Assembly (NCBI GenBank): GCA_017983775.1
Contig: JAGOAT010000001.1
Coordinates: forward strand, 1 to 56,751
DNA: 56,751 bases
Origin: Candidatus Saccharimonadota bacterium
Lineage (GTDB): Bacteria > Patescibacteriota > Saccharimonadia > JAGOAT01
Direction of reading: 5' to 3'
Position numbers and translations under genes: made by a program. Under the pieces are notes generated by a model. The model saw only the letters and a list, made by a program, of their open reading frames with translations. It was not told the origin of the DNA and searched no databases. Shown piece after piece: positions 2,359-47,377 of the stretch; the stretch's first letter is position 1; each line of letters begins with the position of its first letter.

Positions 2359-3564
2359 TTATATCCTTGATGGTCTTAGGAAGCGATGGTATTGGGCATT
2401 TTTAAATGTATCAATAATAGCTTGTCTGTCCCCATCTGTGAAATCAAACTTAGTAAGTAGATAGGTTAATCCTTCTTCGTTGCCGCCCAAACCAAGGCCA
2501 TGCGCAAAAGTTATAGCAATTACTAATAATGCTACATACTCTTGGCCTGGAACAAACAACATATCCAAAATATCCCTACGATCCAGCAATCCAATAACTT
2601 TACAAAAATCATACCCTAGGAATAAGTCAACTGAGCCCTCTTCTGCTAATCGACTGAAATAATCTTGCTTTGCTCGGAGAATAGTGTCCATAACAGCGTT
2701 GCCCCATTCGTAGGTGCCTTCTGGTTTTTTGAATTGTTCGATCATTGATTCCCATAAACCGTCAATTATATGAACCTTAGCCAATATTTCTTCAGCTTTA
2801 CTGAAATTACTAGCCAGCATAGCGGAAGTTAGCTCCCTATTCGCTTCCAGACGAGCTACACTCTCCCTCCAAGAGTCAGTCGTGATCAGCCCTTTAGCTC
2901 GAGCAGCAGTTTCGGGGTCACTTTCTCCCAGAACAACTATGATGTCGAATAGTGCCTCGTTGATCCAGTATGGAGGGGCATCTGTAACTTCGCCTTTTAT
3001 TTTTAGCTTCCGACTGTAAGACTCGACTAATTCAATAATAGGTAAGGCAAACTCAGTAATCGCACTGGTGTATAGGTGATCATAGCCTCTACCCATACAA
3101 CATAGTACTTCCTTGAGATCAAGATAAGCACCTCTTTTAAGTTTACCTTTCTCTTTAATCAGGGACCTAAAATGCATTAGTGCAATCTCAAAACACTTGC
3201 CCATTAATTCATCTTGTTGCGGCTCTGCAAAGTAAACTTTAGCGTATTCGAAAATCGTAAGGGCTACTCTTCTGTTAGGGAAGTTGCTGGCCTCCCAGGC
3301 TAAAACCTTAAACCCTAGACTTTGCTCGTCTGTGTCTTCTGAGTCAAACAGTGGCTCTATAGCTACGCGCATCAGGTCCAAAGATACGCGCATCAGGTCC
3401 AAGGCATCTATCCCTAAAGCTTTTGCCTCACATCGAGCTATAGTTAGAGCTTCTTGTAAGCCTTTCTCGCTTAAGGTATCCCTTAGTAATTTGTTAAAGG
3501 CCTGAGTCTTATCTCCACTACCCTCATGAGAATGGCTGGTATCTAGGTCACCTGTCATAAACAA
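2359..3564 (-). CDS. hypothetical protein (alpha-helical), contains an in-frame 21-nt tandem duplication
   Basis: Long 401-aa ORF with no motif I recognise. The duplicated peptide is LDLMRVS/LDLMRVA. Confidence 0.5.
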   Translation of the reverse strand: MFMTGDLDTSHSHEGSGDKTQAFNKLLRDTLSEKGLQEALTIARCEAKALGIDALDLMRVSLDLMRVAIEPLFDSEDTDEQSLGFKVLAWEASNFPNRRVALTIFEYAKVYFAEPQQDELMGKCFEIALMHFRSLIKEKGKLKRGAYLDLKEVLCCMGRGYDHLYTSAITEFALPIIELVESYSRKLKIKGEVTDAPPYWINEALFDIIVVLGESDPETAARAKGLITTDSWRESVARLEANRELTSAMLASNFSKAEEILAKVHIIDGLWESMIEQFKKPEGTYEWGNAVMDTILRAKQDYFSRLAEEGSVDLFLGYDFCKVIGLLDRRDILDMLFVPGQEYVALLVIAITFAHGLGLGGNEEGLTYLLTKFDFTDGDRQAIIDTFKNAQYHRFLRPSRI

Positions 3565-3673
3565 TCCTTCGTATTTATTATGATATTACCCTAGCATAAC
3601 CCCTATTGCAAGCATAAGGATTAATAGTCTACTAGTAGTGAGGGATTACTGATGCAATATAGGAACAAGCCTA

Positions 3674-4057
3674 CTAAATCCTGACAACATTTTCCCCACC
3701 CTGATTGGCCAATCGTTTGTCAAATGTCGCCAACTGATTGTTACCGGTAGTGGCCTCTGTCGCTACATAACAATCTACTATAGATAAAGCAGCATGATCA
3801 CGATATAAACTAATCACTTCAGGTAGAAAATCTCGGTTTGTAGCCAAATTTGGGAAATTAAAAAAATCACCGACAAGTCTCGCAATGTCTTGTCTAGGTA
3901 TTTGAAATATTTTTTCTAAGACATAGATAGCCTCGATTATCACTACCTCGGTCACATAGACTTGATTATTCAAGATTAGATTTTCTACCTTTTTGGCTTG
4001 TTCGGGCAAGTCATTAAGTAGGAACCTTAATACCAAATTGGTGTCCAGGCTAATCAT
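3674..4057 (-). CDS. vapC: PIN-domain toxin (VapC-like)
   Basis: MISLDTNLVLRFLL... is the N-terminal acidic PIN motif. An ATG at 4057 overlaps the stop of the upstream antitoxin ORF by 8 nt. The track ORF extends to 4165, but that extension overlaps the antitoxin. Confidence 0.75.
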   Translation of the reverse strand: MISLDTNLVLRFLLNDLPEQAKKVENLILNNQVYVTEVVIIEAIYVLEKIFQIPRQDIARLVGDFFNFPNLATNRDFLPEVISLYRDHAALSIVDCYVATEATTGNNQLATFDKRLANQGGENVVRI

Positions 4058-4319
4058 TGATATCATCAACCCAAGAATCACCCCTGGCTTTATTGAGAGC
4101 TTCATCCGATAAACCTTTAAGACAAGCTGGGATATTCTTCGTGATACGAGATCTTGTTTTTGCAAAAGACTTGATATCAGTCCCAGCGTTTAGAATGATA
4201 TTGTTATTCTCATCAAGAGCTAGGGTTAGTTTTTGACCAGATTTGAGGTTTAATGCTTTACGCAGAGGAGAGAGTATAGTAATCGTGCCTTTACTGGTCA
4301 AAGTAGTCTTATAATTCAT
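4050..4319 (-). CDS. vapB: AbrB/SpoVT-family antitoxin (VapB-like)
   Basis: 89-aa ORF. TLTSKGTITILSPLRKALNLKSGQKL is a swapped-hairpin AbrB-type motif. It lies directly upstream of the PIN gene and overlaps it. Confidence 0.7.
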   Translation of the reverse strand: MNYKTTLTSKGTITILSPLRKALNLKSGQKLTLALDENNNIILNAGTDIKSFAKTRSRITKNIPACLKGLSDEALNKARGDSWVDDIND

Positions 4320-4640
4320 GTATTACATACTAACATGCGTAATACATATCGTCAATTTCTTACGTAATCATCCCCCACTTTGCAACATAAATGGTAGGCG
4401 TCCTAAACTGTAGTTACTATTAAATAATTACGAAAGGAGCCTACCATGGCTTATTCTAATAACCCTAGCCTACCTAAAGCTAGAGCAGTTGCTATGCAAT
4501 TACTCATCAGAGAATAACTTCTACTATTGGGTGGTGCATTTTCAAGGAGTCCTCTTGAAAATGGTTTATTAAAATCTATAAGATATTTTGGATATATACT
4601 CAACTTTGAGGCTAGGTAGGCTAGGTGTTAAAATATTCAG

Positions 4641-5396
4641 ATGACTATCACAATCATCGGATATGGGCAATTTGGCAAGTTGCTTGCAAAATTGCTCTCT
4701 CCCTATCTAGAAAAGATTTATCTGGTATCCTCCAAGCAACTAACCAATCTACCAAAAGGTTGCCAGCAAATGAGCCTTGAACAAGCAGTCAACAAATCCC
4801 AGCTCATCATTCCCTCTATTCCAATGCAAAACTTTGATCTAATGCTAGAAAAGATTGCTCCATTACTCCAGCCTGACACCATTATAGTAGACGTTAGTTC
4901 AGTCAAGGTCTATCCGATAGAGCAAATGCAACGATTATTACCCTCAAATGTATCAATCCTCGCTACCCATCCCCTGTTTGGCCCAATCAGCATCAATGAA
5001 CAAGGATTGGTAGGCCAACAAATTGTCCTCTGCCCTACTCGGATCAATTTACCTCAATACCAAATGATCAAAGATTTTCTAACCCAAAAGCTAGGTCTGG
5101 TAACAATCGAAATGTCCCCAGCTGAGCATGACCAAGAAATGGCCTGGATCCATGGTCTAAGCTTTTTTGTTGGCAGAGGTTTGACTCAAATGAGCTTGCC
5201 AAAACTCAAATTAAACACGGGATACTTCAAGAAATTAATTGAGCTGTCAGAGACAGAAAAAACTCATAGCTGGGAACTTTTTGAAACTGTCCAAATCTTC
5301 AATCCGTATGCCAAAAAAGTTCGTCAAGATTTCCTCGACATACTATCCAAGCTCAACCAGCACGTATTAAAAAGCGAGAAAAATGACAGAGATTAG
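4641..5396 (+). CDS. tyrA: prephenate/arogenate dehydrogenase
   Basis: N-terminal Rossmann motif IIGYGQFGK, VDVSSVK, and the ATHPLFGP motif characteristic of prephenate dehydrogenases. Confidence 0.7.
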   Translation: MTITIIGYGQFGKLLAKLLSPYLEKIYLVSSKQLTNLPKGCQQMSLEQAVNKSQLIIPSIPMQNFDLMLEKIAPLLQPDTIIVDVSSVKVYPIEQMQRLLPSNVSILATHPLFGPISINEQGLVGQQIVLCPTRINLPQYQMIKDFLTQKLGLVTIEMSPAEHDQEMAWIHGLSFFVGRGLTQMSLPKLKLNTGYFKKLIELSETEKTHSWELFETVQIFNPYAKKVRQDFLDILSKLNQHVLKSEKNDRD

Positions 5397-5931
5397 TAAT
5401 TCAATCTATATTGATACCCAGTTACAGCTCAGAGCCCTGAATCCCGATGATTCTCCTGCCCTATTTGCCCTAATAGATACCAATCGAGAATATCTAGCCC
5501 GGTTTCTTCCCTGGGTAGAGGACACTCTTTCTATCAATGACTCTCTAGGATTTATTAATAAATCATTTGAAAACTACGCTAATAATATAGAATACAACTT
5601 CGGGATATTTTACCAGGATAGGTTGGTCGGCATGATATCTATCAGAACAGCCAATCATCTCGGGGCACCCCTAGAGATTGGCTACTGGATAGCTGAAGCA
5701 TACTCCGGCAAAGGTATTACCACTCAAGCTACTGATGCGATTACCAAATATGGCTTTGACCAATTAGGCCTCAGTCAAATCTCAATATTCGCCCAAATAG
5801 ACAATCCTGCCAGCAATAAGATTGCTAAGAAGATTGACTACCAACTGATCGACAGTAAGACAAAAATAGATGGCAAAATTATAAATCATTGGATAAAGTA
5901 TCCACCTCCTGACCAAATCAATCCAAAATAA
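5383..5931 (+). CDS. GNAT family N-acetyltransferase (RimJ/RimL-like)
   Basis: 182 aa. LRALNPDD...YLARFLPW...IGYWIAEAYSGKGITTQA is typical of RimJ/RimL-type GNATs. Confidence 0.75.
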   Translation: MTEISNSIYIDTQLQLRALNPDDSPALFALIDTNREYLARFLPWVEDTLSINDSLGFINKSFENYANNIEYNFGIFYQDRLVGMISIRTANHLGAPLEIGYWIAEAYSGKGITTQATDAITKYGFDQLGLSQISIFAQIDNPASNKIAKKIDYQLIDSKTKIDGKIINHWIKYPPPDQINPK

Positions 5932-6161
5932 TGAGACGTAAATACCAATCCCACCGAAGAAACTACTTCAAGCCTTCAGATAGAGCTATCAAGAGGTCTC
6001 AGACTGCCAAATATTTGTCCGATCGCAAGAGAAAACTCCATCTAGCAGATCAAGTGGTAACGATTACCCTTGCTATTCTTGCCATATTGATTATTCAGTT
6101 CTTGTCATACAAAATGCTTAGTCCTACAGAAAGACTGTTGATCCGACTACTGGGAAGGTAA
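5931..6161 (+). CDS. small basic protein with one TM helix (hypothetical)
   Basis: 76-aa ORF whose start abuts the preceding stop. It has one hydrophobic helix. Confidence 0.3.
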   Translation: MRRKYQSHRRNYFKPSDRAIKRSQTAKYLSDRKRKLHLADQVVTITLAILAILIIQFLSYKMLSPTERLLIRLLGR

Positions 6162-6346
6162 GCTATTCTAAAGTGATAATATAAATATTGTCTCAAATAT
6201 CACCCTCCATGAACTCAAAGAACTTGCCCGAAATATATTCGGCGTATTAGTAAAAGCTGACATTGATATCGCGCAAGAAATTGTAATACTAGATATGCTC
6301 ATACACTACGATGGTGAGCAAGACCTAGTGAGGCAGGGAGTCAAAC

Positions 6347-6940
6347 CTATTTAACTTGTACAATAGCCCGATCGGATCTAGCAGAGTTAGGTTTCCAGAT
6401 CATATACTGATGACCTTCCTCGATTGGTACCTCAAAAACTACTTGACCACTTGCAGTACCTCCACTGACAAGGTCTCCATAACCTAAAGCATTGTCAGCA
6501 AGTAATGATTTATCATCTAATACTTGCCCCTGAGCGGTCTGGATACGAAAGTTAGCCTGACTATAAGACACAACCTTATCACTAGTATTTTCTAATACTA
6601 CATCAGCAACAACATAGGTCTTGCCATCACTAGTTGTAAAGAATTGATCGAGACTTGTAGTATAGTTAACCTTACTTACAGTCATCTTCACCCCATCAAC
6701 TGTCCCAGCCTCACCAACTATTATCTCTACATCTTTTTCTTGCTTATCTACCCTATCCGCAAATCGATACTCTTTCGTCTGACTAGAGCTTTCAGATGAG
6801 CTATTTGATTGACCACCATTACTATTGTTTGACTTACTTCCCCCTGAGCTACCTATTATTGCCAAAACTACTAGCACAACGATTACCGTTAGTACTTTAT
6901 GTCGAGCAAACCAGCTCTTTTTCTTATTTGATTCAGCCAT
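6347..6940 (-). CDS. membrane-anchored DUF4352-like protein
   Basis: N-terminal TM helix, a Ser/Gly/Asn-rich linker, then a beta-rich domain ...VVADVVLENTSDKVVSYSQANFRIQ.... An AGGAGG RBS precedes the ATG. Confidence 0.6.
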   Translation of the reverse strand: MAESNKKKSWFARHKVLTVIVVLVVLAIIGSSGGSKSNNSNGGQSNSSSESSSQTKEYRFADRVDKQEKDVEIIVGEAGTVDGVKMTVSKVNYTTSLDQFFTTSDGKTYVVADVVLENTSDKVVSYSQANFRIQTAQGQVLDDKSLLADNALGYGDLVSGGTASGQVVFEVPIEEGHQYMIWKPNSARSDRAIVQVK

Positions 6941-6985
6941 TTTATGACCTCCTATTAGTTAGTTTATTAATCGGAGGCGATAACC

Positions 6986-7106
6986 AAAAAGGACAGCCTC
7001 GCTATGTTGTCTAGACTAATAGAAGAGATTGAACCCTACTATTTGCGTGGCTGCCCATTTCTTAGTTCAATCCACGCAAGAGGCGTTTTCTTCTATTAAT
7101 CTAGAC
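6986..7106 (-). promoter_or_regulatory. structured 5' leader A (riboswitch-like; long P1, H-type pseudoknot, U-tract)
   Basis: P1 pairs 7009-7026 with 7089-7106 (17 of 18 bp). P2 pairs 7027-7034 with 7065-7072. P3 pairs 7043-7050 with 7072-7079 and is interleaved with P2. The loop GAAATGGGCAG (minus strand) is conserved. A T-run follows on the minus strand. It is a paralogue of the element at 25326-25443. Confidence 0.45.
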
Positions 7107-7284
7107 TCAATCATCTTACCATCTAGTTCAAATAATCTCAAAATCTTACAAATTTGAAGGTTATAAATCAGGTATCTTTATTGAAAAATTCAATACACCT
7201 ATTACCCTTGACATCGGGAGTATAATAAGGTTAAGAGATAAATAAAGATAGAATATTACTAACTAATATGATAGGAGGGATGCT

Positions 7285-7848
7285 ATGGCAAAGAATATTG
7301 CTGAGCAAGCTGGCTATGATCTGAGTGGGATCTTGATGGCCAGAGGAGTATTTACAATTATTTTTGGGGTTATTGCCCTAGTCTGGCCAGGTATGACCTT
7401 GGTCACTCTAGCAATAATCACTGCAATCTGGCTGTTTGTCAGCGGTATTACTGGCGCATTATCCAGTATATTCATGCGAGACAATCACCAATACTGGTTC
7501 CTGAGACTAATCCTCTCACTAATCCAGTTTGGAGTAGGGGCATATCTGGTGCAACGACCTGGAATATCCATCCTAACCTTTATGCTAGCGATTGGACTGA
7601 GTTTCATCGTCGAAGGTGTGATCGAACTAGCCATCTCCTTCACAGATTCAGGCATGGATGGTGGTAGTAGAATGTTAGGAGTACTACTTGGTCTACTAAC
7701 AATGGCTGGAGGAATCATGGTCTGGAGATATCCAGATACTGGTTCACTAGCTTTCATTTGGGTTCTCGGTCTAGTAGCTCTAGTCGGTGGTACTGCCACC
7801 CTCTGGAAAGCTATCGATATGCGTCGAGATCTCAAAAAAGACGAATAA
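7285..7848 (+). CDS. HdeD/DUF308 family membrane protein
   Basis: 187 aa with six hydrophobic helices. RGVFTIIFGVIALVWPG is a typical DUF308 repeat. Confidence 0.65.
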   Translation: MAKNIAEQAGYDLSGILMARGVFTIIFGVIALVWPGMTLVTLAIITAIWLFVSGITGALSSIFMRDNHQYWFLRLILSLIQFGVGAYLVQRPGISILTFMLAIGLSFIVEGVIELAISFTDSGMDGGSRMLGVLLGLLTMAGGIMVWRYPDTGSLAFIWVLGLVALVGGTATLWKAIDMRRDLKKDE

Positions 7849-7878
7849 TTCACTAAGGCTTTATTCACTCCACTCAAA

Positions 7879-7905
7879 AACCCGGCTTATAGAGTCGGGT
7901 TTTTT
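7879..7905. terminator. bidirectional intrinsic terminator between convergent genes
   Basis: aacccggc-ttataga-gtcgggtt is followed by TTTTT and preceded by AAAAA. Confidence 0.55.
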
Positions 7906-8245
7906 ATTGAATAACTGCCCCACCTGCAGACTGCAAATCATCAATTCCACCAAGATTTACGACATCAGTATATCCTTCACGCTCTAGGATCTTTTTAGCA
8001 ATCCCTGCCCTGCCCCCACTCCGGCAGTAGAGATAGGTCTTCTGATTTTTGGCTAGCCTGGGCAAGTCCCCATTAGTCAATCTGGCTAAATCCCAATTGA
8101 TTGCTCCCGTAACATAGCCAGTCCTGAACTCTTCAGGAGTCCTGACATCGATCAATGTCACCTGGCCTTGCCTAGCCTCCTCAACTGCTTGCTTAATCTT
8201 GGCTAAATTACTATCTTTATTGGCCAAAAACCACGTATCTGGCAT
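7904..8245 (-). CDS. rhodanese-like sulfurtransferase domain protein
   Basis: LIDVRTPEEF..G...GAIN and the active-site loop CRSGGRAG. Confidence 0.8.
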   Translation of the reverse strand: MPDTWFLANKDSNLAKIKQAVEEARQGQVTLIDVRTPEEFRTGYVTGAINWDLARLTNGDLPRLAKNQKTYLYCRSGGRAGIAKKILEREGYTDVVNLGGIDDLQSAGGAVIQ

Positions 8246-8277
8246 TCTACGATAAATAATCCATATTAAGCCAAATA

Positions 8278-10893
8278 TTAGATAGACTGAAACTTAAATT
8301 GTCCCGACTGATACTCGATGCCAATCCTGTCCCCTTCTTTAATCTGACCATCAATAATCTCGAGAGCTAAGAGATCTAGAATTTCGGACTGAATTAGCCG
8401 CTTGAGTGGTCTAGCCCCAAAGGCTGGATCATATCCAGCAATAGCTAGTTGTTGCTGAACGCTACCATCAAACTCCAGATGAATATCTCTAGCTTCAGCG
8501 ATTTGCTTAGCAACTTTGTCTAGCTGAACTTTGACAATCTCAGTCATATGCTTCTTGTCTATCCGCTCAAAGATCACGATATCATCAAGTCGATTAAGGA
8601 ACTCTGGCCTAAATTGTCGTTTGGCAATATCAATCACCGCTTCACGCATTTTTTCAAAATCCTTGCCATCCCAATCCTGGATATAACTTGAACCAAGGTT
8701 GCTGGTCATGATGATAATCGTATTGGTAAAATTGACCACCCTACCCTGTCCATCGGTTAACCTTCCGTCATCTAATACTTGCAATAAGATATTGAAAATA
8801 TCTGGACTAGCTTTCTCGATCTCATCAAAAAGAATAATCTGATATGGTCTCCTGCGAACTGCCTCTGTCAACTGCCCACCTTGCTCATAGCCAACATATC
8901 CAGGAGGTGAACCAATCAGTCTAGCTACCGAGTGAGACTCCATGTATTCACTCATATCGATCCGAATCATCGCTCGATCATCATCAAAAAGTTCACTAGC
9001 TAGAGCCTTGGCTAGCTCTGTCTTACCCACACCAGTCGGTCCCATGAAGAGAAATGAACCTATTGGGCGATTCTGATCACCAATACCTGCTCTAGACCTT
9101 CTAACGGCACTAGAAACAGCCTTGACTGCCAACTCTTGACCTATCACACGCTTGGCAATCACCGATTCTAGATTGACCAGCTTATCAGATTCACTCTGAA
9201 GTAGCTTATTGACTGGTATACCTGTCCAACGCGCCACAACTTTGGCAATATCTTCACCTGTAACCTCATCCCTCAATAAGCGTTGGCTATCAGGTATCTG
9301 GGCTAGCTGAGACTGAAGCTGCTTGATCTTGTCTTCAGATTTTGGGATCTTATCAAATCGGATCTCACTCGCTCCGGCCAGATCTCCTCCCCTTTCGGCT
9401 CGTTCTTCATCGACCCTTAACCCCTCAATCTCTTCGGATATCTGATTGATCTGATCGATCAAGTCCTTTTCCTTCCTCCAGTGCCCTTCAAGTACTTTAC
9501 TCTTCTCTCCTAGATCAGCTATCTCTTGATTAATCTCAGATAAGCGAGCCTTGGCACTGGCTGATTTGTCCTTTTTGACTGAAGCTTTCTCAATGCTGAG
9601 CTGAGTAATCTTGCGCTTTTGTCGATCGAGTTCGGTAGGCATCGAATCAATCTCAATCTTGATACTACTCGTAGCTTCATCTATGAGATCAATGGCCTTG
9701 TCGGGCAAGAATCTATCCGGTATATACCTTGCAGATAATGTAGCAGCAGAAACAATTGCATCATCAGTGATTCTGACACCATGATGTACTTCGTACTTAT
9801 CCTGTATACCTCGCAAAATCGCGATAGTATCTTCCTGGCTTGGCTCCCCAACATATACTGGCTGAAATCGTCTCTCAAGTGCACTGTCTTTCTCTACATA
9901 CTGACGATACTCGTTGAGGGTTGTGGCACCAATCATATGAAGCTTTCCCCTGGCAAGTAATGGCTTGAGCATATTACCTGCATCTACTGCACCATCAGCC
10001 TTACCAGCTCCGACAATAGTATGTAATTCATCGACAAAAAGAATGATCTGACCATCACTCTTCTCGACCTCTTTAAGGACAGCCTTAAGCCTTTCCTCAA
10101 ATTCTCCACGATATTTTGCTCCGGCAAGTAAGCTAGATATTTCCAGCGAAATTATTCGTTTATCCCTGAGCGAACTTGGCACATCCCCAGAAATAATCCT
10201 CTGAGCTAATCCTTCGACAATAGCTGTCTTGCCAACGCCTGGCTCACCCAATAACACTGGATTATTCTTAGACCTACGAGACAGCACTTGCATACATCTT
10301 CTGATTTCCTCATCTCGGCCGATTACTGGGTCTAATTGACCAGATCGAGCAAGTTCGGTGATATCTTGACCAAATTTCTCTAGAGTATTAATAGTGCTTT
10401 CTGGTGAATCATTTTCCACTTTCTCTCCTCCTCTCAATTTATCTATTAGATCAATTAATTGATCCGGATCTAGCTCTTTCAGTAAATCAATTCTAGCTTG
10501 CTTGACTACTCCAACCAAAAGATGCTCTGTCGATAGGTGACTATCTCCCAGCCTATTTCGTATTTGATCTGCTTTGCCCAACAAATCAACCATACTCTGA
10601 TCTGCTTTCAAATTCATCAGATCGATTGCCTGAGTCAAACTGGGCAATTGTTCAAGCTGGAAAAGCAGGCTGGTACTTAATCCGATTTGATCTACCTCTA
10701 GCTGTTCAAGAATCAAGCAAAAAATCGTATCGGTTTGTAGACTCAGAGCCCAGATCAAATGATCAGCACTCAGGCTAGGATTCTTGAGCTCCAAAGCCTT
10801 GGAACTCGCTACCTCGAACCCCTCTCGGACTTTCTGTGTCATCATCTCAGGCTTCATATTACTTAGTATTATCCCACCAACCCCTTTTTGCAA
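8278..10893 (-). CDS. clpB: ATP-dependent chaperone ClpB
   Basis: Two AAA+ modules (GEPGVGKT and GPTGVGKT Walker A motifs), a long coiled-coil middle domain and a Clp N domain. The true start is probably ATG at 10845 or 10842 (MMTQKV). Confidence 0.95.
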
Positions 10894-35730: not shown

Positions 35731-36375
35731 ATGAATAACACTAGCCAGCCAAAATTTGCTATCTATGATTTGATCCTTGTTAGCTTTGCTGTCTTATTTC
35801 TAATCTCTAATCTATCTGCTACCAAGCTAGTATCATTTGGTCCAATTATTACCGATGGAGGAGCAATCCTATTCCCTCTTACCTATATTTTGGGGGATGT
35901 CTTGACTGAAGTTTATGGGTATAAATATGCAAAAAAAGCAATTTGGGTAGGTTTCGGAGTAATGCTACTAGGCGTAGCGGCCTTTACAATAGTCAGATAC
36001 TTGCCAGCAGCTCCTGAATATACTGATCAAGAAGCATTTGAGACTATCTTGGGCTTTTTCCCTAGGATTGTCCTAGCTAGCCTTTTAGCCTTCCTTGCAG
36101 GATCTTTGCTCAATTCAATCAGTCTAATAAAAATTAGATCGGCCACACATGGCAAGGCTCTCTGGGCAAGACTGATTGGCTCTACTATGGTCGGTGAATT
36201 CTTCGATACTCTAATCTTTGGCGTGGTTGCTTTCGCTGGAATTCTCAGTAATTACGACCTATTCAAGTTCATCCTGATTGGCTGGGTCTTCAAAACAGGC
36301 ACAGAAATCGTACTACTGCCGATAACATACAGAGTAATCGATTGGGTAAAAAAGATTGAAAAATTAGAAAACTAA
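35731..36375 (+). CDS. yhhQ: queuosine-precursor transporter (YhhQ/DUF165 family)
   Basis: GGAILFPLTYILGDVLTEVYGYKYAKKAIW is the hallmark YhhQ region. Adjacent to tgt. Confidence 0.8.
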   Translation: MNNTSQPKFAIYDLILVSFAVLFLISNLSATKLVSFGPIITDGGAILFPLTYILGDVLTEVYGYKYAKKAIWVGFGVMLLGVAAFTIVRYLPAAPEYTDQEAFETILGFFPRIVLASLLAFLAGSLLNSISLIKIRSATHGKALWARLIGSTMVGEFFDTLIFGVVAFAGILSNYDLFKFILIGWVFKTGTEIVLLPITYRVIDWVKKIEKLEN

Positions 36376-42047: not shown

Positions 42048-45000
42048 TTAGCGTAATCCTGGATCAAAACCCACTGATGGATAAGTAAGCTGGCTACGGA
42101 TTAGCTCATAAAATGTATCCTGATCCCATTGCTTTTTATCGGATTGTTTCTTGGTGTCTAGATACTCTGATTTTAGTTTTAAATAACCTCGCAATGCTAT
42201 ATTGAGAGCAGCTTGCAAATCTGCATCTGCAATATGTAGACAATCCAAGTATGGACATACAAAGATAGCCGAGTTGGCATTTTGATTGACCCAATCCTTC
42301 GCATCAAGTTCGCTAAAAATCCTATGATAATCCTTATTCTTACCAATAGCGAATTGCATTGCTTGACTATGTATAGGTGGCCTCATAAAAGCATAGATTA
42401 GCTTAAGTTTATTGATCTCCTGACCGCTCACCTGACCAAAATTACCCCCCGTATATGCTAGCAGTTTATTGTTGTCACCAGTGTCAATAGTAGCTAATTC
42501 AGAAAAATCCTCTAGTATTTCAAGCTGATACTGCTCCTTATCTTTGATGTCATATTTGTACCAACGTTTACATTTACCACAAGTCTGACTAGTGCCAGAA
42601 GCAGATACCTCGATTCCTGGCCTTCTTGTCCGTCCCTTTGCAGCTTTACCCCAGTAATGCTCCAGCTTGGCATTGTCCGCACTATTTTGCCCAAAGACAG
42701 ATCCGACTTTGAGTGATTTATAGACTTTGACAATTCGATTTCCACCAGTCTCAAAGGCATTAATATTAAACTCATAGCTAATTCGTGCCTGATACTTCAA
42801 GGCCAAAGCTTCTACTCTAGCTTGATAGCTACTGGCCAATGACTTGCGCAACTCTGCTATATGGGTAGATTGACTAGAAAAAGTTGCAAATCTTTGACGT
42901 TTTTTGAGCTGAGTTACCTGACCGGAGAGAGCCTGGTGTTGATTGTCACGAATAAATCCCTGATCTACAATGACAACATTACCTTCATCACCTACTTCAA
43001 TAACCAACCATGCTAGACCTTTCTCCCCTACATCTACACCAACTATCCGATTGGGGATTTGTTGCTTCTCTAGCCCAAATGCACCCTTTTTGGATTCTTT
43101 GGCCAGGATATTGAAAGGAATACTTGCAAACACCCTCTCCGAACCCTGAATGTTTTCTATATGAAGTCTAGCCTGATCATCCCATCTAATCTTCTTGCGA
43201 GTTTCCGCAATGCTAAAGCCTCCCATAAATGATAATGGATTATGTTTATATTTTGGTTTCTTGATCAACCACCATAAGAATTGTTTCTGATATCTACTAC
43301 CTCCTATACGGTACAGTGCAGAATTCTTTGCTGGCTTATAAGGCTTAGCAACGGGCAAACTACCTGATTTCGGTTTTGGAAATTGTTTGAGATCGTCAAA
43401 GCCACCCTTAAGCTCAGCACCCATCAATCCACCATGTTGCTCTATGTAATATTTTGTACTAGTCACTGGATCTTTTGGATCAAATACTAGCTTGATTTGT
43501 GCTCCATTGACTTCCTGAATAGCAGATCTCTCTATGTATTCTCTCTTTGAGACCAAACTCAACAACCCCTTGAGCTCAGCTAGCAACATTGTCTGCAAGA
43601 AGGTATTTAGGCTGTGATTATTGAGCCTATAGTCCCTAAGAGCTAGGTATATGTCTTGCAGTTTATTAATAGGCTCTACATTGTCTACCTCAAACTGATC
43701 AACCTTACTAATCAATATACTAGATAATATCTTGATCAATTCAATATAGTCTATTGTAGAATCTAGTTGTCTAATGACCGTTACTGGATTCCTAATCTCC
43801 TCTAGGGTCTCTTCTAATATCTCAATTATTGGGAACCTGCTAGCTGGGGTATCTTGATAGCTGATCAATTCCCTCTTTTGCCTAGCAAAAGGTGAATTGT
43901 AAAACACCTTATCTTCGATATTGAGGGTTTCCATATTAAGTCTCAGCTCAACAAGCGCCAATATCTTGAGAGATTTGTGTGATCTCAGCGATACTGCCCA
44001 TTTCCTTAGCCTCTCCAAATCTTTTGCTTGCAAATAAGCATCTGATTGGTATTTGATAATAGGACTAATAGCACTAAGAAGCTTGGTGAATTGACTGATC
44101 AAACCTTGATAATTATCTTTATAATTTACGACTTTGATAAACTTCTCTCGCGCTGACTCTCCAAGCAAGTTTGGTATCCTAGGAAGTTGCTTGGTGAGAT
44201 CTCTAAAATCAGTCTTGAAATCCAAACCCAACCCTGAGTTGGCCTGTAAATGGGCATTTAGGTCTCTCCTAATCCTAGGTAGTAACAATTGAGCACCTTC
44301 TGTCAATAATGGATCAAGGTACTGATCTGCGTGATAGGTATCTAGCAAAGACTGATAGATATTGATCAGATCATTAATACCTATCCCCAAATCAGGGTCT
44401 TGATCAACCAACTTATCTTGATACTTCGTCAGGTTATCTAGGTGTTTGCTGGCTACAGTGACTATCTCCTCTTCTTGCCTCAGCTTATTACTATAAAATG
44501 AACTCATCTTACTAGCGAAATCAACCCGATAGTCACCCCAACTATTAGCTAGCTTGGGCTGGCCAATATTTTTGGCCAACTCAGCTAGTCTTAGCAATCT
44601 AGCTCGCACTATTTCCCTTTCCCGATCTGTGTATTTGAGATACACACTCATGTCATCCAGGTACTGATTGATCACTTCAGCCCCTTGAGAAGCCAGATCA
44701 TTAAAGACTTGATTGAGGAAATTACTGAAACCACTTGCACTATTGGCTAACCCGATCAACTCCTCGATATCTTTTGCATTTAGACGATCTGTCTTGTCTA
44801 CCAAGTCCAAGTGTAACCTCCGAATAATCTGTTCAAACAGCTCAGTCTTACTATCCGCCTCCAGTTCTTCCCAGCTAGGCAAAATCAAAAATGAGATGGA
44901 TTTTCTGGGACTAACGGGTAGTTGTGGGTCTTTGATGCCAAATAATTCTAGCTTGAATAAGGTCTTTTGATTATCCCCAGTAATCTTATTGATTTGCTTG

Positions 45001-45530
45001 GCAAACTGATGAGCTATCTCTAGCAATCTGTCTGAAGGTCTCTCTTGAGCAGAAATTGTAGCATAACGCTTGAGAAAAATCTCTACCAATTCTGTCTCAG
45101 ATCTAGCATTTAATCTACTAGAGGTCAGTATATTTTGCTCCCAACCAGTATAGTTGAGCTCTTGTTTTAGTGCTGGATCTGGAATCTGATTAAATAAGCT
45201 TTCTAGATAAGAATCATTATCTAGAATTATTTCTCCAAGCTTACCCAGTCTAGCTGTCGAGTACATAAAAACTCCGCCCATCGCCAAAGTCTCCAGCCAA
45301 AACTCTAAGATTGAAGACCTCTGAGCTAAATCAATATAATCACTTAATTGCAACCTACCATAAAGTCCTCGGTAGTCACTAGCTATATTCTTAGTCAATG
45401 CTGGTATGTCATCGCCATAGAGTGGAAACTTGATTGTCCGAATTGCGGTACCATTTTCTGCCCAGGACAATCTAGAATCATGCAAGCGATACCCTGTCAA
45501 TAATCTTTGTGATTTGTTGCGTTTTTTCAT
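42048..45530 (-). CDS. cas12d: single large CRISPR effector, RuvC-only (type V; CasY/Cas12d-like)
   Basis: 1160-aa ORF ending 118 nt from the array. RuvC-I is IVGVDVGEKGLAW (D833, nt 43032-43034). RuvC-II is ISYEFNINAFE (E920, nt 42771-42773). The Zn ribbon is CGKC (984-987) plus CPYLDC (1092-1097). RuvC-III is HIADADLQAALNIALRG (D1102/D1104, nt 42219-42227). There is no HNH motif, and the N-terminal ~800 aa have no motif I recognise. The locus has cas1 only, 25-nt repeats and 18-19-nt spacers. Confidence 0.85.
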   Translation of the reverse strand: MKKRNKSQRLLTGYRLHDSRLSWAENGTAIRTIKFPLYGDDIPALTKNIASDYRGLYGRLQLSDYIDLAQRSSILEFWLETLAMGGVFMYSTARLGKLGEIILDNDSYLESLFNQIPDPALKQELNYTGWEQNILTSSRLNARSETELVEIFLKRYATISAQERPSDRLLEIAHQFAKQINKITGDNQKTLFKLELFGIKDPQLPVSPRKSISFLILPSWEELEADSKTELFEQIIRRLHLDLVDKTDRLNAKDIEELIGLANSASGFSNFLNQVFNDLASQGAEVINQYLDDMSVYLKYTDREREIVRARLLRLAELAKNIGQPKLANSWGDYRVDFASKMSSFYSNKLRQEEEIVTVASKHLDNLTKYQDKLVDQDPDLGIGINDLINIYQSLLDTYHADQYLDPLLTEGAQLLLPRIRRDLNAHLQANSGLGLDFKTDFRDLTKQLPRIPNLLGESAREKFIKVVNYKDNYQGLISQFTKLLSAISPIIKYQSDAYLQAKDLERLRKWAVSLRSHKSLKILALVELRLNMETLNIEDKVFYNSPFARQKRELISYQDTPASRFPIIEILEETLEEIRNPVTVIRQLDSTIDYIELIKILSSILISKVDQFEVDNVEPINKLQDIYLALRDYRLNNHSLNTFLQTMLLAELKGLLSLVSKREYIERSAIQEVNGAQIKLVFDPKDPVTSTKYYIEQHGGLMGAELKGGFDDLKQFPKPKSGSLPVAKPYKPAKNSALYRIGGSRYQKQFLWWLIKKPKYKHNPLSFMGGFSIAETRKKIRWDDQARLHIENIQGSERVFASIPFNILAKESKKGAFGLEKQQIPNRIVGVDVGEKGLAWLVIEVGDEGNVVIVDQGFIRDNQHQALSGQVTQLKKRQRFATFSSQSTHIAELRKSLASSYQARVEALALKYQARISYEFNINAFETGGNRIVKVYKSLKVGSVFGQNSADNAKLEHYWGKAAKGRTRRPGIEVSASGTSQTCGKCKRWYKYDIKDKEQYQLEILEDFSELATIDTGDNNKLLAYTGGNFGQVSGQEINKLKLIYAFMRPPIHSQAMQFAIGKNKDYHRIFSELDAKDWVNQNANSAIFVCPYLDCLHIADADLQAALNIALRGYLKLKSEYLDTKKQSDKKQWDQDTFYELIRSQLTYPSVGFDPGLR

Positions 45531-45576
45531 CTTAATTGATACTTAATCTATATGTTATATCTGTAAATCGCGAGAT

Positions 45577-45620
45577 AGTTGGAAAGGCAAGGTAGCGAAT
45601 CAAACGCTACGGAACCAACT
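45577..45620 (-). ncRNA. candidate scout/tracr-like RNA core (stem-loop with a short anti-repeat)
   Basis: Minus strand reads AGUUGG-UUCC-GUAGCG-UUUGAUU-CGCUAC-CUUGCCUUU-CCAACU. The outer 6-bp and inner 6-bp stems are perfect. GCCUUU in the internal loop is complementary to AAAGGC at the spacer-proximal end of the repeat. The transcript ends are unknown. Confidence 0.35.
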
Positions 45621-45647
45621 TTAATTAAAACACTGGGGAGGTGACTA

Positions 45648-46194
45648 ATCTTTTTCCCCATATTTTTCGGGGCTCTCCGCTGCCGCCTCGGCCTTTTTCC
45701 CCATATTTTTCGGGGTGCTTCAGTCCGCTAGGGGCCTTTTTCCCCATATTTTTCGGGGGGCTAAATTACTTGCAGTAGCCTTTTTCCCCATATTTTTCGG
45801 GGCAACAAAAGGATTGGCAGTGCCTTTTTCCCCATATTTTTCGGGGGACATTGCTGTCCCCTCCTGCCTTTTTCCCCATATTTTTCGGGGGCCATGGGGC
45901 AGGTTAGTGCCTTTTTCCCCATATTTTTCGGGGTAGACGCTTACTGGGCGAAGCCTTTTTCCCCATATTTTTCGGGGAGGTCAGTAATAACTTCTTGCCT
46001 TTTTCCCCATATTTTTCGGGGACAGCACGCACGCGTATGTGCCTTTTTCCCCATATTTTTCGGGGTTGTAAATGTAGCTCCTTGCCTTTTTCCCCATATT
46101 TTTCGGGGATGGTAAAATATAGTCAAGCCTTTTTCCCCATATTTTTCGGGGAGCCAGAAAACCTGGATCGCCTTTTTCCCCATATTTTTCGGGG
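45648..46194 (-). CRISPR. CRISPR array with 13 repeats and 12 spacers
   Basis: The plus-strand repeat is GCCTTTTTCCCCATATTTTTCGGGG (25 nt), present as 12 identical copies starting at 45691, 45734, 45778, 45822, 45866, 45909, 45953, 45997, 46041, 46084, 46127 and 46170. A degenerate terminal copy lies at 45648-45672 (ATC in place of GCC). Spacers are 18-19 nt and all unique. The strand is inferred from the degenerate repeat at the left end and the AT-rich leader at the right. The crRNA-sense repeat is CCCCGAAAAATATGGGGAAAAAGGC. Confidence 0.97.
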
Positions 46195-46303
46195 AGATCC
46201 CGCGAATTTACAGATATAAATTTACAAAAAACTATTGTTTTTCTGTTTATATATTAGCAGTAAGTTGATAATTTTCAAGCCAAATTCACGACAATGCATT
46301 ATA
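46195..46303 (-). promoter_or_regulatory. putative CRISPR leader / cas1-array intergenic control region
   Basis: AT-rich sequence next to the non-degenerate end of the array. It contains the right arm of the array-flanking inverted repeat (46197-46219). Confidence 0.4.
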
Positions 46304-47377
46304 ATGGGACAAAATAGTATGAAAATCAAATCCCCAACCAAACAAGCGCATCATAACAAATCTCCCAATAAATCTCGACGTGTACCCGTATGGATTCCTT
46401 ACCCTTCAAGTATCAGCATAGACAGGCAAGCAAAATTGATTACCGAATACAACGGTGGTGATCTCGAAGCTAGCCTAGATGAGATATCTAGCATCATGAT
46501 CTATGGTGAGACAAAAACTAAGATCGAGATATCTACATTAGAAAAGATTGCCCGTAAAGGAATACCCATCATTATCCATAGGCGCAACATGCATCAATCT
46601 ATCATTATTACTGGCTCTGGCAGACCAGACCCTGATGACACCCTAACCAAGCAAATACTATTCCGCACAAACCAACACAAGAGAAACCATATTGCCCGAT
46701 CTTTGCTCAATGCCAAATTTATTTCATCCAGATGTCTAGTATCAGAAACCATCAAACTTGATAAAGATCTAACTCTTGCAGAAATGAGACAGATTGAAGC
46801 CCAATTGGCTAGAGAATATTGGTCAAACTTCTTTGATCAATTATCACCTGATGCTAGTCTTGCTAGAAGGAATAACAACCCATACAGCAAAGCACTGGAT
46901 GCCAGTAGCAAGTTTCTGACTGGAATAATACTACGCTGGGTAAGCTACCATCACCTCTCTCCTTTCCATGGTTTTCTACACGAACCAACTAGCTACCCTG
47001 CATTGATTTATGATTTAATTGAACCCTATCGACCTATATTTGAATATAAGATTCTCCAGAGTTGGCAAAATGTCATCAGTCCAGACCCCTTAAAACTTAC
47101 AGGTATAGCTATTGATACCATAAAAGATAGTCTCAATGAACAAGTCTACGTACCTCTTACTCGGCAAATAGTCACTAGACAGGAGCTACTTCATGGAATA
47201 GTGCTATCACTCAAGCATTATTTGCTAGGTAATCAATCTCGTCTACTGATTCCTCTGGAGGGTAAACCCAACGGAGGAAGACCTCCCAAGGTAAATTTTA
47301 GACTCTATGGTAGGCAAGCTGGCAAGACTGACTTCTGGCAACAAGCCAGCAAGGTAGCAAAAAATTCTCCCACCTGA
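46304..47377 (+). CDS. cas1: CRISPR-associated endonuclease Cas1
   Basis: ...FHGFLHEPTSYPALIYDLIEPYRPIFE... is the Cas1 His / acidic-residue signature (YDLIEPYRP at 47009-47035), with an upstream EAQLAREYW glutamate region. The start is set at ATG 46304 (alternative ATG at 46319). The track ORF begins at TTG 46235. Confidence 0.9.
   Translation: MGQNSMKIKSPTKQAHHNKSPNKSRRVPVWIPYPSSISIDRQAKLITEYNGGDLEASLDEISSIMIYGETKTKIEISTLEKIARKGIPIIIHRRNMHQSIIITGSGRPDPDDTLTKQILFRTNQHKRNHIARSLLNAKFISSRCLVSETIKLDKDLTLAEMRQIEAQLAREYWSNFFDQLSPDASLARRNNNPYSKALDASSKFLTGIILRWVSYHHLSPFHGFLHEPTSYPALIYDLIEPYRPIFEYKILQSWQNVISPDPLKLTGIAIDTIKDSLNEQVYVPLTRQIVTRQELLHGIVLSLKHYLLGNQSRLLIPLEGKPNGGRPPKVNFRLYGRQAGKTDFWQQASKVAKNSPT

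Follow-up and report, generated by a model that had tools for sequence, protein, structure and literature searches.

The window analysed here is a 56,751-nucleotide (nt) stretch, contig JAGOAT010000001.1 of the GenBank assembly GCA_017983775.1 from a Candidatus Saccharimonadota bacterium, and we describe a CRISPR-Cas locus within it. The locus comprises an effector gene encoding 1160 amino acids (aa), a predicted short-complementarity untranslated RNA (scoutRNA), a CRISPR array, a leader, and cas1 (Table 1). An initial annotation, made from the sequence without database searches, had described a 1160-aa open reading frame (ORF) on the minus strand near a CRISPR array with cas1 divergent on the other side of the array, and this arrangement was present. 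The ORF had been said to end 118 nt from the array; the proximity holds, and it is the start codon side, not the end, that faces the array, with 117 nt between the two.

Table 1. Features of the type V-D locus in the window.
Feature	Position	Strand	Evidence or remark
cas12d (casY), type V-D effector of 1160 aa	42048..45530	minus	NF033951, PADLOC, GenBank identity, conserved residues, AlphaFold
Candidate helix, 3′ arm	45538..45576 (core 45555-45568)	minus	begins right after the scoutRNA, stops 8 nt short of the cas12d ATG
Predicted scoutRNA core, 44 nt	45577..45620	minus	architecture, synteny, descriptor, covariance model
scoutRNA outer stem, 5′ arm AGUUGG	45620-45615	minus	
scoutRNA UUCC	45614-45611	minus	
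scoutRNA hairpin GUAGCG-UUUGAUU-CGCUAC, then linker CUU	hairpin 45610-45592	minus	
scoutRNA dock GCCUUU	45588-45583	minus	complementary to the last 6 nt of the repeat, AAAGGC
scoutRNA outer stem, 3′ arm CCAACU	45582-45577	minus	
CRISPR array: 13 direct 25-nt repeats, 12 unique spacers (18-19 nt)	45648..46194	minus	
Terminal, oldest repeat, degenerate	45648..45672	minus	ends AAAGAT, others AAAGGC
Leader and divergent promoter region	46195..46303	minus	AT-rich, adjoins the non-degenerate array end
Candidate helix, 5′ arm	46196..46236 (core 46206-46219)	minus	ends 1 nt before repeat 1
cas1, sole adaptation gene of the locus	46304..47377	plus	Pfam Cas_Cas1, PADLOC

We compared the 1160-aa protein with the profiles of the Cas12 subtypes, a search that the initial annotation had proposed. 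The NCBIfam equivalog NF033951 (Cas12d/CasY) matched at E = 0 and 1024.2 bits against a cut-off of 250 bits, and the alignment placed residues 11–1118 on model positions 1–1179 of 1180. The PADLOC Cas12d models matched with E values of 3.5e-136 and 8e-125. The Cas12c model NF033950 reached 41.3 bits against a cut-off of 250, in the C-terminal RuvC region only, and the Cas12e model NF045604 reached 23.9 bits against a cut-off of 200. The only Pfam match was to a Cas12f1-like TNB domain; no HNH domain was detected by Pfam, as the initial annotation had read. An exact-sequence look-up found the identical protein in GenBank (MBP6005326.1), already annotated as Cas12d. The CasY/Cas12d identity had been proposed in the initial annotation, and it is borne out by the NF033951 score, the PADLOC matches, the GenBank name, and the profile and fold matches to Cas12c given below; the fallback claim of an unclassified type V subtype is rejected on the same results. 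A TnpB or insertion sequence (IS) element was ruled out, since the protein matches the Cas12d model over its full length and lies beside an array and cas1. These results indicate, with a probability that we put at about 0.93, that the locus represents a type V-D CRISPR-Cas system on the chromosome of a Candidatus Saccharibacteria bacterium (candidate phyla radiation (CPR)/Patescibacteria). The effector is a divergent Cas12d of a family that is already known, and the automated GenBank annotation had already labelled it correctly.

An exhaustive HMMER search against 1.84 billion representative proteins returned 231 relatives at E ≤ 1e-3, the closest of which was 40% identical, apart from a truncated copy of the window protein itself, and a word-indexed homologue search returned 3 relatives only. 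The relatives came overwhelmingly from metagenome-assembled genomes (MAGs) of Patescibacteria. A search of genome contigs for related loci with the single protein found nothing; the contig-scale scan was seeded with a 6-sequence alignment, as the 25-sequence alignment was too divergent. We identified a 1125-aa protein of candidate division WWE3 as KbCas12d/CasY.1, because its locus contains a 1041-bp cas1, a 3378-bp effector gene, and the published Kb repeat and scoutRNA. The comparison with CasY.1, also proposed by the initial annotation, gave 28% identity over the full length (E 2e-83).

All of the motifs quoted in the initial annotation were found at the residues stated there. RuvC-I is IVGVDVGEKGLAW at residues 829–841, including D833; RuvC-II is ISYEFNINAFE at residues 917–927, including E920; and RuvC-III is HIADADLQAALNIALRG at residues 1099–1115, including D1102 and D1104. 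The zinc-ribbon cysteines lie in CGKC (984–987) and CPYLDC (1092–1097), and the motifs EFWLETL and FMRPP lie at residues 76–82 and 1048–1052, respectively. In an alignment of 25 family members, D833, E920, D1104, and C1097 were nearly invariant, and C984, C987, and C1092 were invariant. Both residues of the D1102/D1104 pair named by the initial annotation are thus present, and of the two only D1104 is in the list of nearly invariant columns. The effector has a single C-terminal split RuvC (D833, E920, D1104) with an inserted zinc ribbon/TNB (C984, C987, C1092, C1097). D833 and E920 align with the aspartate and glutamate of KbCas12d, in which alanine mutants of D827 and E913 (preprint numbering) lose DNA cleavage (bioRxiv 10.1101/2023.12.12.571249).

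A single-sequence search of the PDB with the effector gave no match. The family profile matched Cas12c2 (7V93) at 4e-41, Cas12c1 (7VYX) at 3e-28, and weakly a Cas12e. We modelled the protein with AlphaFold2 on the 25-sequence alignment, and the model had a mean predicted local distance difference test score (pLDDT) of 85.3 and a predicted template modelling score (pTM) of 0.76. Foldseek placed the model closest to Cas12c2 (E 8e-26) and Cas12c1 (E 7e-24) over approximately 1100 columns with template modelling (TM) scores of 0.54–0.60, the value for Cas12c1 being 0.60, and Cas12e/CasX and Cas12a ranked after Cas12c. The AlphaFold superposition suggested by the initial annotation thus matches the Cas12c, Cas12e, and Cas12a structures. 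The N-terminal 800 or so residues had been described as being without a known domain, a statement that does not stand, given the full-length alignment to the Cas12d model and the Cas12c fold match over approximately 1100 columns. Because Foldseek places the model on Cas12c over this length, the N-terminal 800 residues correspond, in the predicted structure, to the REC and WED lobes that are usual for a Cas12c-like enzyme. Neither the single-sequence nor the family-profile search of the PDB turned up a Cas12d structure, and the confident model (pLDDT 85) shows a Cas12c-like architecture.

The array was detected by Tandem Repeats Finder and a repeat finder. The minus-strand repeat is CCCCGAAAAATATGGGGAAAAAGGC, and 12 of the 13 copies are identical. 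The initial annotation had given spacers of 17–19 nt and a repeat ending in AAAGGC. The spacers are short, as stated, and their lengths are 18–19 nt given a 25-nt repeat; the repeat end is confirmed except in the degenerate terminal copy. The mutation in this copy falls exactly in the scoutRNA anchor (AAAGGC to AAAGAT), so that the anchor is lost, and we infer that this loss would block the formation of a junk CRISPR RNA (crRNA) from the trailer sequence. Because the degenerate repeat sits at the cas12d end, the leader is assigned to the cas1 side and transcription to the direction of cas12d. About 50 related loci have 25-nt repeats ending in AAGGC, and in nearly all of them the repeats run in the same orientation as cas12d.

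The cas1 product matched Pfam Cas_Cas1 (E 2.4e-20) and the PADLOC Cas1 model (E 1e-25). The ORF is open from a TTG at 46235, which would give 380 aa, and an ATG at 46304 gives 357 aa. The latter is most likely the start, because the public protein collection lacks the 380-aa version. No match to Cas2 or Cas4 was obtained among the flanking ORFs scanned, in agreement with the cas1-only locus that the initial annotation had listed for CasY. Possible promoters of the array in the leader region are minus-strand sigma-70-like sites at 46278-46251 (TTGAAA-16-TAATAT, preceded by TG) and 46325-46298. They are matches to the consensus alone, and such sites are no more numerous than in shuffled sequence.

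V-D systems require a short-complementarity untranslated RNA beside the crRNA. The scoutRNA concept and Cas12d15 are attributed to Harrington et al. 2020 (Mol Cell 79:416), who reportedly describe a short-complementarity RNA with a conserved five-nucleotide sequence that is needed beside the crRNA; the predicted dock GCCUUU of the window is comparable to these five nucleotides. For KbCas12d, a 44-nt scoutRNA1 of the sequence AAAGGGU UUCC AGUUU UUAACU AAACU UUA GCCUUCC ACCCUUU is sufficient in vitro (bioRxiv 10.1101/2023.12.12.571249). The terminal repeat and the ATG of cas12d are separated by 117 nt, and within these lies a candidate of the same architecture, which reads AGUUGG UUCC GUAGCG UUUGAUU CGCUAC CUU GCCUUU CCAACU from 45620 to 45577. 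The initial annotation had flagged the region 45531-45647 as relevant, and the predicted scoutRNA lies within it.

We searched for this architecture with a strict structural descriptor, which gave 46 matches in 72 sequences on both strands, most of them a short way upstream of cas12d and on its strand. The single match in the whole window was 45577-45620. With a relaxed parse, the element was found upstream of cas12d in 48 of 50 loci. When the rest of the window was cut into 1855 tiles of 117 nt, not one reached the descriptor score of the candidate; 12 of 2840 random tiles from related loci did.

Covariance models were built iteratively from the relatives with the window left out, after a MAFFT alignment had put the stems out of register and RNAalifold had recovered 5 pairs only. 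The covariance model found 25 sites at E < 0.01, all of which were on the cas12d strand and upstream of the gene. In the alignment of the relatives, which was fitted to the model and thereby favours the structure, 96% of the cells pair and compensatory changes occur in 14 of 14 pairs. The covariation score was 1.02, compared with 0.21 in shuffles (0/500 reached the observed value) and 0.08–0.18 in slid registers. The predicted window scoutRNA was the top match of the covariance model R2 in the 7-kb locus with the filters off; with default filters, R1 and R2 both miss it. No Rfam family matched anywhere in the window, and Rfam appears to be without a scoutRNA model. The case for the predicted window scoutRNA is therefore mainly its synteny, its shared architecture, and the descriptor null.

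Several further observations concern the scoutRNA. A weak R2 match in the window at 36052-36090 on the plus strand (22.9 bits, E 0.025 over 634 kb) lies inside a 214-aa ORF (35731-36375), far from any array, and is probably a chance match. One related locus (L069) has two identical scoutRNA copies (4608-4655 and 4824-4871) between the array and cas12d, within a duplicated segment of approximately 216 nt. Where the array lies downstream of cas12d, as in L014 (4899-4959), L037 (4931-4987), and L055 (185-243), the scoutRNA is still directly upstream of cas12d, and its outer stem is much longer, at 13–14 bp (GCGCCYTTGCGCT...AGTGCAARGGCGC).

The array and the scoutRNA lie between the arms of a perfect inverted repeat of 14 nt (46206-46219 and 45555-45568). 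The two window arms gave an RNAduplex energy of −30.9 kcal/mol (z = −6.9), and the minimum free energy and centroid folds of the putative primary transcript of 718 nt both contain the helix (z = −6.4). The Kb locus (L075, approximately 3243-3262 and 3977-3999) has the same arrangement with the unrelated sequences TATCAACAAAATC and GATTTTGTTGATA. We then compared the 23 loci with the array immediately upstream of the scoutRNA. In approximately 14 of them, the leader and the sequence after the scoutRNA shared an exact inverted match of a length that was significant by shuffling (p < 0.05). The helices predicted by RNAduplex span 20–45 bp and typically lie 0–7 nt before repeat 1 and 0–3 nt after the scoutRNA. 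The mean duplex energy was −28.2 kcal/mol for arms from the same locus and −14.0 kcal/mol for arms from different loci, and the true partner outscored all 22 foreign partners in 17 of the 23 loci (Mann-Whitney p = 1.2e-9). The pairing was absent where the array lies downstream of cas12d, which rules out a general trans-acting anti-leader pairing. We tentatively suggest, with somewhat less than even confidence, that array-upstream V-D loci share a conserved long-range leader-trailer helix of 14–45 bp, the pairing of which is kept while its sequence varies and which encloses the array and the scoutRNA. The helix looks like an RNA helix analogous to the leader-trailer helices of precursor ribosomal RNA (pre-rRNA). 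No description of it was found in the searchable literature, a search that did not extend to the original scoutRNA paper.

The bracketing inverted repeat might instead act as DNA, as one promoter or operator motif upstream of the divergent cas1 and cas12d. In the window, each of the two genes has ATTTACAGATATAA upstream of it, in one and the same relative orientation; this motif includes TTTACA, a hexamer similar to a −35 element. In several loci, moreover, a stretch of the leader arm (ATCTGTWA) shows sequence conservation. The arm sequences nevertheless diverge widely between clades with their complementarity kept, which is a signature of pairing and not of a motif bound by a protein, and the helices reach 20–45 bp with bulges and G-U pairs. 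Among the mismatches beside the exact seeds, G:T, which is a wobble pair in the sense RNA, outnumbered A:C by 40 to 18 (binomial p = 0.003). The sense-strand duplex was the more stable in 18 of the 23 loci (Wilcoxon p = 0.0014); approximately half of this strand asymmetry is compositional, a point for the DNA motif, and the same-locus excess persists after compositional control (p = 0.009). In addition, the arms abut repeat 1 and the 3′ end of the scoutRNA and keep no fixed distance to either start codon, and the pairing is absent when the array and the scoutRNA are not contiguous. On these grounds we consider a DNA motif the less likely reading.

Some observations bear on the surroundings of the proposed RNA helix. 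Between the end of its 3′ arm and the cas12d start codon there are 8 nt in the window and 2 nt in the Kb locus, and the helix could occlude the translation start of cas12d if the array, the scoutRNA, and cas12d are co-transcribed. No intrinsic terminator was found between the scoutRNA and cas12d in the window; one related locus (L001) has an intrinsic terminator (GCCGCCCGAAAGGGCGGCTTT) after the helix arm. In the array-downstream loci, the long outer stem of the scoutRNA may substitute for the leader-trailer helix.

We compared the window locus with characterized systems. KbCas12d/CasY.1 (WWE3/Katanobacteria; Burstein et al. 2017; bioRxiv 10.1101/2023.12.12.571249) belongs to the same family model, and its locus has the same gene order (divergent cas1, leader, array, scoutRNA, and cas12d) with no cas2 or cas4. 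The Kb repeat is likewise 25 nt with a CCCC/GGGG-type hairpin and an AAAGGC end; its spacers are 17–19 nt compared with 18–19 nt in the window. The Kb scoutRNA has 44 nt with the same succession of outer stem, UUCC, hairpin, linker, GCCUU dock, and outer stem at the same position in the locus, and a leader-trailer inverted repeat brackets the array and the scoutRNA there too. The two systems differ in the effector (28% identity; 1125 aa in Kb, 1160 aa in the window), in the host (WWE3 and Saccharibacteria, respectively), and in the scoutRNA stems and helix arms, which are of unrelated sequence. The terminal repeat is truncated in the Kb locus, whereas that of the window is point-mutated; either change would stop a junk crRNA from the trailer. 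In regard to Cas12d15 (CasY15), its 5′-TR protospacer adjacent motif (PAM) and RuvC cleavage of double-stranded DNA would be expected for the window Cas12d by homology.

Cas12c (type V-C; 7V93/7V94 and 7VYX) provides the nearest solved structures (TM 0.54–0.60), and its RuvC and TNB are similar at the profile level (4e-41). V-C systems also use a short-anchor scoutRNA or trans-activating crRNA (tracrRNA) and short spacers. The family models are far below their cut-offs, however, and the RNA scaffolds differ. V-C loci usually contain cas4 and cas1, as does a distant locus in our set, whereas the flanking ORFs scanned in the window gave no Cas4 match. This distant locus (L004; coordinates 3141-3912, 4199-5926, and 6001-9768) has cas1 and a PD-(D/E)XK Cas4-like gene. 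Its effector relative P0003 has 1255 aa and is 27% identical over 42% of the query, and its array of 18 repeats is on the opposite strand, with a repeat that also ends in AAAAGGC. The locus may be V-C-like or intermediate.

For the proposed helix, the pre-rRNA leader-trailer helices of bacteria (PMC11404451, PMC10250234) provide the parallel. In both cases long-range complementarity flanks a structured non-coding RNA unit, the sequence varies with the pairing conserved, and the helix closes the whole unit. The enclosed unit differs, being a CRISPR array with a scoutRNA here, and RNase III processing or any function of this helix would be putative.

The spacers were searched for targets. Six spacers were scanned against IMG/VR, and five of them had no exact match. 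Spacer 3 (AAGGAGCTACATTTACAA) had three exact matches, one with a 5′-TA flank and two with an AC flank. The TA-flanked match (IMGVR_UViG_3300017913_002256, L072 805-822) lies in a viral contig of 39% G+C, compared with 40% for the host. By a rough estimate, three matches are about the chance expectation for an 18-mer. No spacer matched the rest of the window at ≤ 2 mismatches.

Certain points weigh against the reading of the locus as a working V-D system with the RNA parts described. No convincing protospacer was found among the six spacers scanned against IMG/VR, and the window scoutRNA is a weak match (13.5 bits, E ~0.1) to a model that was trained on a different subclade. Roughly half of the helix's strand asymmetry is due to base composition. 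Nuclease activity is not readable from the RuvC motifs alone, because RuvC-intact relatives such as Cas12c2 bind DNA without cutting it (PMC9522604). Expression of the locus, its PAM, and cleavage are all taken over from homologous systems.

The Cas12d system may no longer provide DNA-cutting immunity and may be silent, decaying, or restricted to binding or regulation like Cas12c2. Such a loss of function would fit the lack of credible phage targets for the spacers scanned, the existence of RuvC-intact relatives without cleavage of double-stranded DNA, and the failure to find Cas2. The ORF is full-length with all catalytic residues and zinc ligands, however, and 12 of 13 identical repeats with 12 of 12 unique spacers are as in a maintained array; cas1, the scoutRNA, and the leader-trailer helix are intact. 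The absence of Cas2 is normal for V-D systems, as in the CasY.1 locus, and the phages of CPR bacteria are poorly sampled. A non-functional system is therefore improbable in our assessment. It is more improbable still that the effector belongs to another or an unclassified type V subtype (Cas12c of V-C, Cas12e, or a new branch) and merely resembles CasY: the identities are low (28% to CasY.1 and ≤ 40% to any other relative) and the nearest solved structures are those of Cas12c, for the reason that no Cas12d structure was found in the PDB, but the Cas12d model is matched over its entire length with a score four times the cut-off, Cas12c and Cas12e stay at 41/250 and 24/200 bits, and the repeat, the spacer length, the cas1-only module, and the scoutRNA architecture are all as in V-D loci including CasY.1.

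On the preferred reading of the locus as a V-D system, the work on KbCas12d and Cas12d15 suggests the following course of events. The array and the scoutRNA would be transcribed on the minus strand from the leader toward cas12d. The unpaired GCCUUU dock of the scoutRNA would pair with AAAGGC at the 3′ end of the repeat, and Cas12d would bind the crRNA:scoutRNA pair, the 18–19-nt spacer of which would find double-stranded DNA beside a 5′ T-rich PAM. The PAM of the Cas12d orthologues studied is TA or TR. The single RuvC site (D833, E920, D1104) would then cut the target DNA, and Cas1 alone, without Cas2 or Cas4, would insert new spacers at the leader end. The comparative data suggest in addition that the primary transcript may be closed by the helix between the leader and the sequence 3′ of the scoutRNA. 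By analogy with the rRNA leader-trailer helices, this helix probably sets the ends of the pre-crRNA-scoutRNA precursor or shields them, and keeps the precursor apart from the cas12d mRNA.

The flanking ORFs with Pfam matches are housekeeping genes, namely those for a YifB-type Mg chelatase-like ATPase, a SpoU methylase, an aldolase, a bactofilin, and ProRS; three flanking ORFs gave no Pfam match. Several Cas12d loci of the comparison set (L007, L010, L012, L013, L017, L026, L034, and L036) come from MAGs labelled Actinomycetota, Propionibacteriaceae, Gammaproteobacteria, Burkholderiales, Leptonemataceae, or Bdellovibrionales. Cas12d in such non-CPR MAGs could reflect mis-binned contigs of epibionts (Saccharibacteria/CPR) or a genuine spread of V-D systems beyond the CPR.

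By itself, the locus adds little, being one more divergent Cas12d orthologue. The scoutRNA coordinates and the leader-trailer helix are additions to the existing annotation, of which the helix alone is possibly new. The coordinates of the RNA parts required for reconstitution (the 25-nt repeat, the 18–19-nt spacers, and the 44-nt scoutRNA) are now exact. If the helix acts at the RNA level and is undescribed, it would represent a new layer of guide-RNA biogenesis. Its roles are a matter of speculation: it might serve, as in rRNA, as a stem for processing or end protection by which the non-coding unit is cut away from the cas12d mRNA, it might place the scoutRNA beside the newest repeat, or it might occlude the translation start of cas12d in some loci, such as those of the window and Kb. 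V-D systems are reported not to require RNase III for crRNA processing. The helix suggests how minimal V-D systems may mature or protect their two RNAs and uncouple both from the effector mRNA, and, if confirmed, it would inform the design of compact expression cassettes for Cas12d editors.

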